Part shown: in pieces, positions 3,531 to 4,674 of the stretch
How positions within the stretch are numbered: position 1 is the stretch's first letter
Layout of the letters: the number at the start of each line of letters is the position of its first letter
IMG/VR virus record: IMGVR_UViG_2698536307_000012
Length of the DNA stretch: 8,199 bases
Strand: one strand, 5' to 3'
Origin: a virus
Taxonomy: Duplodnaviria > Heunggongvirae > Uroviricota > Caudoviricetes
Notes under the pieces: generated by a model
Database searches by the model: none
Told to the model about the DNA's origin: nothing
What the model saw: the letters and a program-made list of their open reading frames with translations, nothing else
Made by a program: the position numbers and the translations under genes

Positions 3531-4097
3531 ATGGCTAAACCAGCGCGAAGACGATGTAACCGTAAAAGAGAAGATTTAACTGTTAAAAGGATATTTGAGT
3601 TACTAAGTTTCGATAAATCTACCGGGGTATTTAGATGGAAAGTTCCCACTCAGGGAAGGATAGCATTAAATAGTGTTGCTGGAACTTTTGATTCCAACGG
3701 TTATTCAATGATCATGATAGATGGGCGTAGATATAAAACTCACGTCTTAGTTTTTTACATAACTCATAATCGTTGGCCTGCTGGTCAAATTGACCACGTT
3801 AATGGAATTAGGACCGACAATAGGCCAGAAAATTTAAGAGAATGCCTGCCAATAGAAAATTCAAGAAATATAAGGATCCGAAAGAATAGCAAATCAGGTT
3901 GCAGAGGGGTTACTTGGCACAAACGACAGAAAAAATGGAATGTTAGGCTAGGATTCCATGGCAAGAGTAAACACTTCGGATGCTTTGATGATCTGGAGTT
4001 AGCGGTACTAGTTGCTGAAGAAGCCCGAGATAAGTATTACGGTGATTTTTCCGGCAACGAAAGGAGCACTTATGCGAATCTATCGAAGGAAATGTAA
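3531..4097 (+). CDS. HNH endonuclease with C-terminal AP2-type DNA-binding domain (homing-endonuclease-like), N-terminus borrowed from ninG
   Basis: ATG at 3531 with GGAGG 8 nt upstream. The first 9 codons (MAKPARRRC) match the recalled N-terminus of lambda NinG. The HNH core follows ([47 protein letters not shown]), then an AP2-like segment ([52 protein letters not shown]). The track ORF begins at GTG 3450, but that start has no SD, so 3531 is preferred. Stop is at 4095-4097. Confidence 0.8.
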
Positions 4098-4674
4098 ATG
4101 TTGCAATGAATGGTTTATACCAAAATATCAAAATCAATATTGGTGTAATGAGATTTGTGGAACCAAGATAGCACTCGAACGACGAAGTAAAGAACGCGAA
4201 AAAGCGGAAAAAGCAGCAGAGAAGAAACTACGACGAGAGGAGCAGAAACAGAAAGATAAACTGAAGATTCGAAAACTCGCCTTAAAGCCCCGCAGTTACT
4301 GGATTAAACAAGCCCAACAAGCCGTAAACGCCTTCATCAGAGAAAGAGACCGCGACTTACCATGTATCTCGTGCGGAACGCTCACGTCTGCTCAGTGGGA
4401 TGCCGGACATTACCGGACAACTGCTGCGGCGCCTCAACTCCGATTTGATGAACGCAATATTCACAAGCAATGCGTGGTGTGCAACCAGCACAAAAGCGGA
4501 AATCTCGTTCCGTATCGCGTCGAACTGATTAGCCGCATCGGGCAGGAAGCAGTAGAGGAAATCGAATCAAACCATAACCGCTATCGCTGGACTGTCGAAG
4601 AGTGCAGGGCCATCAAGGCGGAGTATCAACAGAAACTTAAAAAACTGCGAAACAGCAGAAGTGAGGTTGCATGA
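4072..4674 (+). CDS. ninG: NinG (Rap) recombination protein, with recoded N-terminus
   Basis: ATG at 4072 with AAGGAG at 4061-4066. The 200-aa product is near-identical to recalled lambda NinG from [23 protein letters not shown]... to the C-terminus, including the CISCGT and [11 protein letters not shown]ys motifs. The first ~29 codons ([29 protein letters not shown]) keep the Cys/Trp pattern but are AT-rich and differ at nucleotide level. The 5' end overlaps the HNH gene by 26 nt; the stop overlaps the ninI start. Confidence 0.9.

Follow-up and report, generated by a model that had tools for sequence, protein, structure and literature searches.

An HNH-AP2 endonuclease gene in the 5' end of ninG in lambdoid phages: anatomy of the cassette, its distribution and its possible homing

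HNH-AP2 proteins are a listed category of putative homing-endonuclease genes in T4-related and Xanthomonas phages (PMC2993671, PMC2248197). Here we analyse one such gene in an 8,199-nucleotide stretch of tailed-phage DNA (IMG/VR record IMGVR_UViG_2698536307_000012; the whole stretch is called the window), a lambdoid nin/Q segment in which the nuclease gene occupies the 5' end of ninG and is overlapped by a complete ninG with a different 5' end. The HNH-AP2 proteins of the T4-related phages RB49, RB16, RB43 and JSE, of the Xanthomonas phages Xp10, OP1 and Xop411, and of T5-like, T1-like and Jersey-like phages combine HNH_3 and AP2 as here; those of virulent phages are 38-48% identical to the window protein over residues ~15-175 and are likewise free-standing, AT-rich and sporadic. 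The virulent-phage genes are intergenic and have their own start codons, whereas the window gene lies in the nin operon of a temperate lambdoid phage, begins with nine codons of the gene presumed to be its target, to which it is fused, and supplies a replacement for that gene's 5' end. The structurally characterised HNH_3 homing endonuclease I-HmuI, of phage SPO1 (PDB 1u3e), has the same D-H...N...N motif. I-HmuI is a nickase encoded in a group I intron and has a different C-terminal DNA-binding module; the window protein comes without an intron and has AP2 in that role.

A related behaviour has been described for the T4 endonucleases SegF, SegG and MobE, whose genes adjoin their target gene, which cut the nuclease-less allele and which are copied into it by recombination; this intronless homing co-converts the flanking polymorphisms by which the donor allele is resistant (both from work as cited in PMC2993671). 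The divergent ninG 5' end that accompanies the HNH gene resembles a co-conversion tract of this kind that has become fixed, with the difference that homing is demonstrated for the three T4 enzymes and inferred for the window cassette. SegF, SegG and MobE are GIY-YIG or Mob-type HNH enzymes of virulent phages, with genes that lie between other genes, and we know of no description of any of them using the start codon of its target.

In Aeromonas phage Aeh1, mobE splits nrdA ('genes in pieces'), and the two resulting polypeptides reassemble with their function kept. At both loci a homing-endonuclease-type gene interrupts the coding sequence of a conserved phage gene without loss of that gene's function; unlike in Aeh1, here nine upstream codons have been donated to the nuclease and a single-chain NinG is restored by the 5' end that the cassette brings along. 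Synthetic 'cleave and rescue' drives, which are engineered, Cas9-based and need an essential target, also link a nuclease to a divergent, cleavage-resistant copy of that target. The likeness is one of functional logic only: ninG is non-essential, and the cassette would spread by copying itself into a cut, not by killing non-carriers. No description of the present arrangement was found in the searchable literature, whose coverage is incomplete, so that this is no proof of novelty. Its unusual feature is that a temperate lambdoid phage combines a start codon captured from the presumed target with a replacement 5' end that is portable; the case is neat and testable, and will not greatly surprise specialists in mobile endonucleases.

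Anatomy of the cassette and of the restarted ninG

We regard it as practically certain that a nuclease gene has been inserted into the 5' end of a lambda-type ninG, replacing a short stretch of it. Break points were set by anchored ungapped comparison with phage 434 and by BLAST; a three-way MAFFT alignment of the window, AU6Stx1 and 434 was set aside, as it placed the whole 434 5' end on the downstream copy. Window positions 3517-3559 (43 nucleotides, comprising the Shine-Dalgarno sequence and the first 29 nucleotides of ninG) are identical to phage 434, through ATGGCTAAACCAGCGCGAAGACGATGTAA; positions 3560-4155 have zero similarity to phage 434; and positions 4156-5403 are 97.4% identical to it. 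The breaks fall between 3559 and 3560 on the left and between 4155 and 4156 on the right. The features of this part of the window are as follows.

3517-3530, plus strand: remnant of the ninF 3' end with the ninG Shine-Dalgarno sequence (GGAGG, 3517-3521), now used by the HNH open reading frame (ORF); homology to phage 434 and HNH-less alleles starts at 3514-3518
3531-3559, plus strand: first 29 nucleotides of lambda-type ninG (codons 1-9, MAKPARRRC, plus AA), providing the HNH ORF with its start codon and an N-terminal tag; identical to 434
3531-4097, plus strand: HNH_3 and AP2 endonuclease ORF, 188 amino acids; its stop TAA (4095-4097) arises out of frame from the Cys8-Lys9 codons of the downstream ninG
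3549-3589, plus strand: imperfect 20-nucleotide direct repeat across the left junction, AGACGATGTAACCGTAAAAG / AGAAGATTTAACTGTTAAAAG (Tandem Repeats Finder: period 20, 2 copies, 80% match)
3560-4155, plus strand: foreign cassette, 596 nucleotides in place of 64 nucleotides (nucleotides 30-93) of lambda/434-type ninG, from the 434 alignment and BLAST breaks
4061-4066, plus strand: Shine-Dalgarno sequence AAGGAG of the restarted ninG, within the 3' end of the HNH ORF, 5 nucleotides before the ATG at 4072
4072-4155, plus strand: AT-rich substitute ninG 5' end, always HNH-linked (G+C content 28.9%, 25% at third codon positions)
4072-4674, plus strand: complete ninG (Rap-family junction endonuclease), 200 amino acids, a chimera of the cassette 5' end and a 434-type remainder
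4093-4097, plus strand: second copy of TGTAA, at the homologous Cys-Lys position of ninG; the first copy is at 3555-3559

The first-pass annotation of this DNA had given the same two ORFs and had read the start of the first as lambda-type ninG codons 1-9 behind the ninG Shine-Dalgarno sequence, and the identity with phage 434 bears out both points. It had given lambda NinG as starting MAKPARRRC; the NinG proteins of phage 434 and of HK630 (Lambdavirus) both begin in this way and have the same first 18 residues. The 'same upstream ninF 3' end' that it described is there for ~14 nucleotides, ninF itself being gone and replaced by an AT-rich island, and the resumption of lambda-like sequence that it put near 4155 is correctly located, with 4156 as the exact first position. 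Comparison with HNH-less alleles and with ~70 other copies of the cassette supports its overall picture of a cassette inside the 5' end of ninG, with a shared start codon and a ninG that is kept whole.

The G+C content is 39% in the HNH gene and 29% in positions 4072-4154, against 49% in the remaining ninG, and it is this composition that marks the block as foreign. By the comparison with 434, the left junction is illegitimate (non-homologous), fusing the nuclease ORF in frame to the Shine-Dalgarno sequence, ATG and first nine codons of ninG, and the right junction falls inside the ninG coding sequence. The HNH ORF leaves the lambda ninG sequence directly after the first TGTAA and terminates in the second, where the TGT-AAA (Cys-Lys) codons at 4093-4098 of the new ninG make its stop, so that the two ORFs overlap by 26 nucleotides; excision of 3560-4097 (538 nucleotides) would rejoin ninG in frame. 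In Salmonella phage Emek the upstream ninF likewise stops in a TGTAA at the corresponding ninG position, 26 nucleotides into the gene; the 26-nucleotide overlap may therefore have been inherited from the gene arrangement of the donor. The 20-nucleotide repeat across the left junction, a post hoc observation, possibly reflects microhomology, or templated repair or synthesis, at the junction.

A scan for promoters and terminators gave nothing notable within the cassette, and an Rfam scan at E <= 1 found no group I or group II intron in the window. An intron was ruled out on the lack of an Rfam match and on the repeated ATGTAA, which is incompatible with a 5' exon ending in U and an intron ending in G; an intein was ruled out since the HNH frame differs from that of ninG and since ninG has its own Shine-Dalgarno sequence and ATG.

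The restarted NinG matches PF05766 over its full length (279.5 bits, 1.9e-83; residues 4-194 on model positions 5-192 of 193). Its N-terminus retains a four-cysteine pattern, C-x2-C-x13-C-x3-C, as in the allele of Stx2 phage 1717 (lambda has C-x4-C-x13-C-x3-C). This agrees with the Cys/Trp pattern noted at first pass, and the restart at 4072 from a Shine-Dalgarno sequence inside the 3' end of the HNH ORF is likewise as described there. The block thus supplies its own Shine-Dalgarno sequence and ATG, and a full-length NinG with a four-cysteine N-terminus is still encoded. The idea that this N-terminus had been recoded to compensate for the insertion does not hold: with ~54% protein and ~55% DNA identity to lambda, and about half of its residues different, it is a divergent allele and not a synonymous one. 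Its start (MR..RR.C) resembles that of Emek (MRKVRRRC), and over a 51-nucleotide core it matches lambda at 28, Emek at 35 and phage 1717 at 27 positions, the natural 434 and Emek sequences themselves matching at 31 of 51. The segment is probably the 5' end of a different, AT-rich and foreign ninG homologue that was transferred together with the nuclease gene.

Variation within ninG was also seen among other cassette loci. At about window position 4207, in the Lys/Glu-rich part of ninG, AU6Stx1 (L002) has a 9-nucleotide in-frame insertion (GAAAAGGCA-type repeat), which gives a NinG of 203 amino acids and is common to L002, L030, L036, L040, L045, L048 and L052. The substitution W24L (the equivalent of window 4142) is recurrent, being present in L006, L011, L012, L023, L025 and L132.

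The linkage of the substitute 5' end to the HNH gene was followed with a back-translated CKCCNEWF pattern and the N-terminus of 40-41 amino acids as probes, in four collections: the phage records, IMG/VR, a set with one genome for each of 185,579 species, and metagenomes (241 million records). By tblastn the 4072-type N-terminus was found in the phage records in only four entries, all HNH-bearing. In IMG/VR the CKCCNEWF pattern lay on 56 contigs, every one of them HNH-bearing (50 confirmed by an exact HNH probe, the other 6 already known as HNH matches); in the species genomes it gave one chance match, in a Flavobacterium membrane-protein gene, and in the metagenomes 8 HNH-bearing copies and one chance TARA match. 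In a word-indexed protein search with the 40-residue N-terminus, all matches were pieces of this same allele from E. coli. Across the four collections all true matches adjoin an HNH gene, and the two chance ones lie in unrelated frames; no HNH-less allele with the 4072-type N-terminus, which would have made that N-terminus ancestral, occurs in the collections searched.

The nuclease and its relatives

The HNH ORF matches Pfam HNH_3 at 42.7 bits (cut-off 24.8), Pfam AP2 at 22.2 bits, which is under the cut-off of 33.3, and PHROG 99, 'HNH endonuclease', at 1.4e-71. A PDB sequence search gave only a weak AP2 match (WRI1, E = 0.19). An AlphaFold (AF2) model built on 15 homologues is confident (mean per-residue confidence score, pLDDT, 87.8) except at residues 1-10 (pLDDT 65) and 180-188. 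Its top fold match in the PDB is I-HmuI (1u3e), with 109 aligned columns, probability 1.00 and a Foldseek E of 0.012 at a sequence identity of only 18%; several AP2-domain structures follow. Residues ~122-173 match AP2 folds (1gcc, target-normalised template-modelling score 0.67 and root-mean-square deviation 1.3 Å; 7wq5 and 7et5, probability 1.00), so that an AP2 DNA-binding domain C-terminal to the HNH domain, weak by sequence, is clear in the predicted fold. In the 15-sequence family alignment D88, H89, N101, L102, R103 and N110 are invariant. By domain, D-H...N...N motif and modelled fold the protein can be assigned to the HNH_3 (I-HmuI-like) family, and by architecture and fold to the HNH-AP2 putative phage homing endonucleases, putative also in its function. 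The unrelated HNH/AP2 sequence reported at first pass behind the ninG codons is also what these domain and fold matches indicate.

The two ends of the protein differ from those of its family. Other members start 1-8 residues ahead of the motif LTxxRLxELLxYDxxTGxFxW and end a few residues past GxF, and family matches to the window protein begin at its residues 10-18. The window protein has ~14 extra N-terminal residues, nine of them derived from ninG, and ~10 extra C-terminal residues, which read into the new ninG up to the TAA; the N-terminal 9-15 and the last ~10 residues are without a counterpart in ~100,000 proteins of the family, and the model shows them as disordered.

Neither a full HMMER scan of 1.84 billion cluster representatives nor an indexed search found an HNH relative above 48% identity, the best standing at 44-48%, and on these searches the donor phage appears to be unsampled. 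The nearest relatives are in virulent phages, with neighbours unrelated to ninG: a T7-like exonuclease/endonuclease I locus, an ABC transporter locus, a tail-fibre region and a holin/endolysin locus. Among the closest, a relative with 44% BLASTP identity (P0004; L126 1033-1927, Ga0502773_0151152) lies directly after a T7-type endonuclease I gene. T7 endonuclease I is a Holliday-junction resolvase, like NinG/Rap; this may be coincidence, or the HNH-AP2 subgroup may tend to adjoin resolvase genes.

Distribution, proposed mechanism and competing explanations

Megablast against 50,697 phage records found the whole arrangement in four, the Stx1 (Shiga toxin 1) phages AU6Stx1 and SH2026Stx1 in their GenBank and RefSeq copies, while hundreds of others (lambda, 434, 21, HK phages, SfI, P22-like) are matched only at either end of the query, by two separate segments. 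Of 5426 complete E. coli genomes, 537 carry the cassette at >=99% identity, and ~500 further ones have an uninterrupted lambda-type ninG; RefSeq routinely annotates the pair as 'HNH endonuclease' and 'recombination protein NinG', leaving the arrangement uncommented. The exact HNH protein is on at least 1000 contigs, the named ones from E. coli and a few Salmonella, and the cassette itself is on 60 IMG/VR and 8 metagenome contigs. Most copies come from O157, O26 and O111 genomes. There is thus a presence/absence polymorphism at one fixed site, with the cassette in the 537 genomes and without it in 434, lambda-like and HK phages.

The junctions are identical across all copies. Over 57 loci the cassette (3560-4154) differs from the window at 0-5 of 595 nucleotides, one copy with a 1-nucleotide deletion aside, while the adjacent ninG differs at 1-51 of 520 (up to 10%) and falls into ~20 or more haplotypes; the ninG polymorphisms or break points begin at 4164, 4188 and 4229 and are common to HNH-less alleles. 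To the left the cassette has two contexts, ninF or the AT-rich island, the latter in 513 of the 537 genomes and ninF in some of the others; to the right it has several, such as ninH and a different Q in AU6Stx1 and ninI in the window. Because the junctions are common to all copies and the cassette varies so much less than the ninG next to it, the cassette has a single origin, is monophyletic and is young relative to the pool of ninG alleles, in many of whose backgrounds it is now present. Its invariance beside a variable ninG is compatible with homing and equally with ordinary lambdoid recombination.

Of 59 other copies of the cassette, 58 keep the nuclease ORF intact. The ORF has 23 variable sites, 12 of them nonsynonymous and 11 synonymous, against a chance expectation of 21% synonymous, and most of the common variants leave the protein unchanged; the resulting ratio of nonsynonymous to synonymous rates (dN/dS) is ~0.29, with a binomial P = 0.004 from a crude, tree-free site count. 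This signal argues against a long-dead nuclease gene. Three loci deviate: L061 has a 1-nucleotide deletion that frameshifts the HNH gene, L004 carries an IS2 within the substitute 5' end of ninG, near window 4120 (L004 4210-5438), and L135 has an internal ninG deletion from ~4146.

The account that we favour, with some confidence though by no means firmly, is that of a single invasion, in which a free-standing HNH-AP2 homing-endonuclease gene entered a lambda-type ninG at its 5' end. The nuclease would have arrived with the first ~84 nucleotides of a ninG homologue from an AT-rich donor phage, in which the HNH gene lay just upstream of the divergent ninG. It would nick or cut uninterrupted lambda-type ninG within or near nucleotides ~30-93, to judge from the stretch that was replaced, and the original entry may have been a double-strand-break repair in which the right end made use of its homology to ninG for invasion and the left end was sealed by non-homologous joining at the cut or close to it, directly behind TGTAA, a course for which illegitimate double-strand-break repair offers the analogy. 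In-frame capture of the ninG Shine-Dalgarno sequence and ATG would have kept the nuclease expressed, within the late-early nin transcript. In later rounds, while genomes co-replicate, a phage or prophage with the cassette would serve as the template for mending the break, and the cassette would thereby be copied into the cut allele (intronless homing). Transcription of the nin operon begins only upon induction, so that the activity of the nuclease would coincide with the joint replication of several lambdoid genomes. The divergent 84 nucleotides would be an immune copy of the target, immunity of the carrier allele being proposed because the target stretch is ~45% different. Homing or plain recombination would since have moved the block among lambdoid prophages. 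The model for these steps is T4 intronless homing (work as cited in PMC2993671). As to homing on ninG as such, past or present, we see the balance as close to even, with a slight leaning in its favour.

Several points weigh against this account. Cleavage by the nuclease, its target site and biased inheritance are inferred; no donor phage and no relative above 48% identity came out of the searches, and the co-transfer of a donor ninG is argued from composition and linkage only. Lambdoid nin regions reshuffle by ordinary homologous recombination and the clones of enterohaemorrhagic E. coli (EHEC) are heavily over-sampled, for which reasons the spread and the high count need no drive. The dN/dS estimate tallies sites and not events on a tree. 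In lambda, ninG is dispensable (nin5 deletion), and keeping it intact may matter less than supposed; nickases of the I-HmuI type can cut their own allele too, so that immunity by divergence is not guaranteed.

A bolder form of the same account, which we put forward only tentatively and hold to be rather doubtful, is that the cassette is a natural self-contained 'cut-and-replace' drive of temperate lambdoid phages that cuts ninG near codon 10. The left junction behind TGTAA would then be the preserved original cut site, the cassette would carry an immune replacement while its nuclease uses the target's own ribosome-binding site and start codon, and the whole would be silent in the prophage and active when lambdoid genomes co-replicate after induction. 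If this were true, the cassette would be an active shaper of nin-region mosaicism in Stx/EHEC prophages.

Homing-endonuclease genes are well studied in virulent phages and have hardly been considered in lambdoid prophages, whose mosaicism is usually ascribed to recombination, general or Red/Rap-mediated, at conserved linkers. In the present case a nuclease gene of homing type occupies the nin (recombination) operon in ~10% of complete E. coli genomes, Stx1 phages included. If active, the nuclease would introduce double-strand breaks at a specific site when prophages are induced and would thereby give rise to gene conversion, with a bearing on module exchange of Stx and other EHEC prophages. 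The architecture is a clean natural route by which a selfish gene can insert in a coding sequence without an intron or intein, and it yields a testable target prediction, ninG nucleotides ~30-93.

Considering the alternatives, the block could be a passive relic of a one-off illegitimate entry, with a nuclease that no longer homes or that never targeted ninG, and could owe its spread to ordinary recombination and the clonal expansion of EHEC. The identical junctions, which point to a single event, the preponderance of O157, O26 and O111 genomes among the copies, the conserved ninF and ninG flanks, which are classic lambdoid recombination linkers, and the degenerate copies (the frameshift, the IS2 insertion and the ninG deletion described above) are all as it would have them. 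It accounts less well for an ORF that is intact in all but one of the other copies with its catalytic residues retained and a low dN/dS, for the in-frame capture of a start codon, which suggests selection for expression at the origin, and for the many ninG haplotypes that adjoin a cassette of near-zero internal divergence, and we consider it unlikely. Were the nuclease inactive, the locus would still be a neat fossil of illegitimate insertion.

The nuclease could also be domesticated, that is, kept for a benefit to the phage (exclusion or degradation of competing lambdoids, or DNA processing with NinG/Rap) and not for its own propagation. The purifying-selection signal fits this, as do the location in a late-early recombination (nin) operon beside a junction endonuclease and the homologue that directly follows the T7 endonuclease I resolvase gene. 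Set against these, the protein has no NCBIfam match and, among the PADLOC defence models, matches only the HNH motif of ZorE (14 bits over 24 residues), and its homologues are scattered in the manner of selfish genes, with holin/endolysin, tail-fibre and helicase neighbours; moreover, the explanation overlaps with invasion by a homing endonuclease, in which marker exclusion of competitors is the homing mechanism itself. As a separate explanation it seems to us quite improbable.

That there was no insertion, the 4072-type N-terminus being ancestral and the HNH gene a mere upstream neighbour, or that the block is an intron or intein, is hardly credible: natural ninG N-termini do vary widely, and Emek offers both MRKVRRRC and an upstream gene that stops in TGTAA 26 nucleotides into ninG, but the ninG 5' end is duplicated here, with 43 nucleotides of lambda-type Shine-Dalgarno sequence and codons 1-9 at the HNH ORF, the 4072-type 5' end was never without the HNH gene in four large collections, and the intron and the intein fail on the Rfam result and on the separate frame and start signals of the two genes.

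The upstream island and other parts of the window

Around the HNH ORF (3531-4097, 188 amino acids) and ninG (4072-4674, 200 amino acids) the window is laid out as follows.

1-738: methyltransferase and ninE, 97% identical to phage 434
739-3516: AT-rich island, including an ORF of 590 amino acids on the minus strand
4671-5336: NinI-type phosphatase
5333-5956: antiterminator Q

The window is without ninF, of which only the ~14 nucleotides of the 3' end at 3517-3530 are left. In 20-odd IMG/VR cassette loci an intact ninE-ninF lies directly 5' of the same cassette, and in one of them (L033) the whole of ninF, ending ...SSMYEEEDDG before its stop, overlaps the HNH ATG. Because these sister loci carry the cassette right after intact ninE-ninF, the island with the 590-residue ORF is a separate event, which replaced ninF and stopped 14 nucleotides short of the ATG.

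The island (739-3516) has a G+C content of 24-35% and fills the place of ninF in most cassette-bearing E. coli prophages; none was seen to adjoin an HNH-less ninG in the sampled matches. Its ORF (1197-2969, minus strand) belongs to PHROG 9230, of unknown function, and is WP_000612805.1, 'hypothetical protein', in RefSeq; the protein matched nothing in Pfam, NCBIfam or PADLOC. The spacer upstream of this ORF contains, at 3286-3338 and possibly within the promoter region of the ORF, a perfect hexamer array, (TATTTC) x 8.8, whose copy number of 3-13 across 39 related loci makes it hypervariable.

Downstream of Q, on the plus strand at 7206-7411, there is a full-length match to the gammaproteobacterial small RNA STnc100, which is sub-threshold (37.5 bits against a gathering cut-off of 47, E = 1.8e-5). 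Two overlapping, membrane-like ORFs at 6194-6712 and 6709-6951 (172 and 80 amino acids) jointly span one PHROG 1521 profile; the equivalent of 6194-6951 in E. coli E2865 is a single coding sequence of 247 amino acids (WP_001302581.1), and the window copy appears to be frameshifted.

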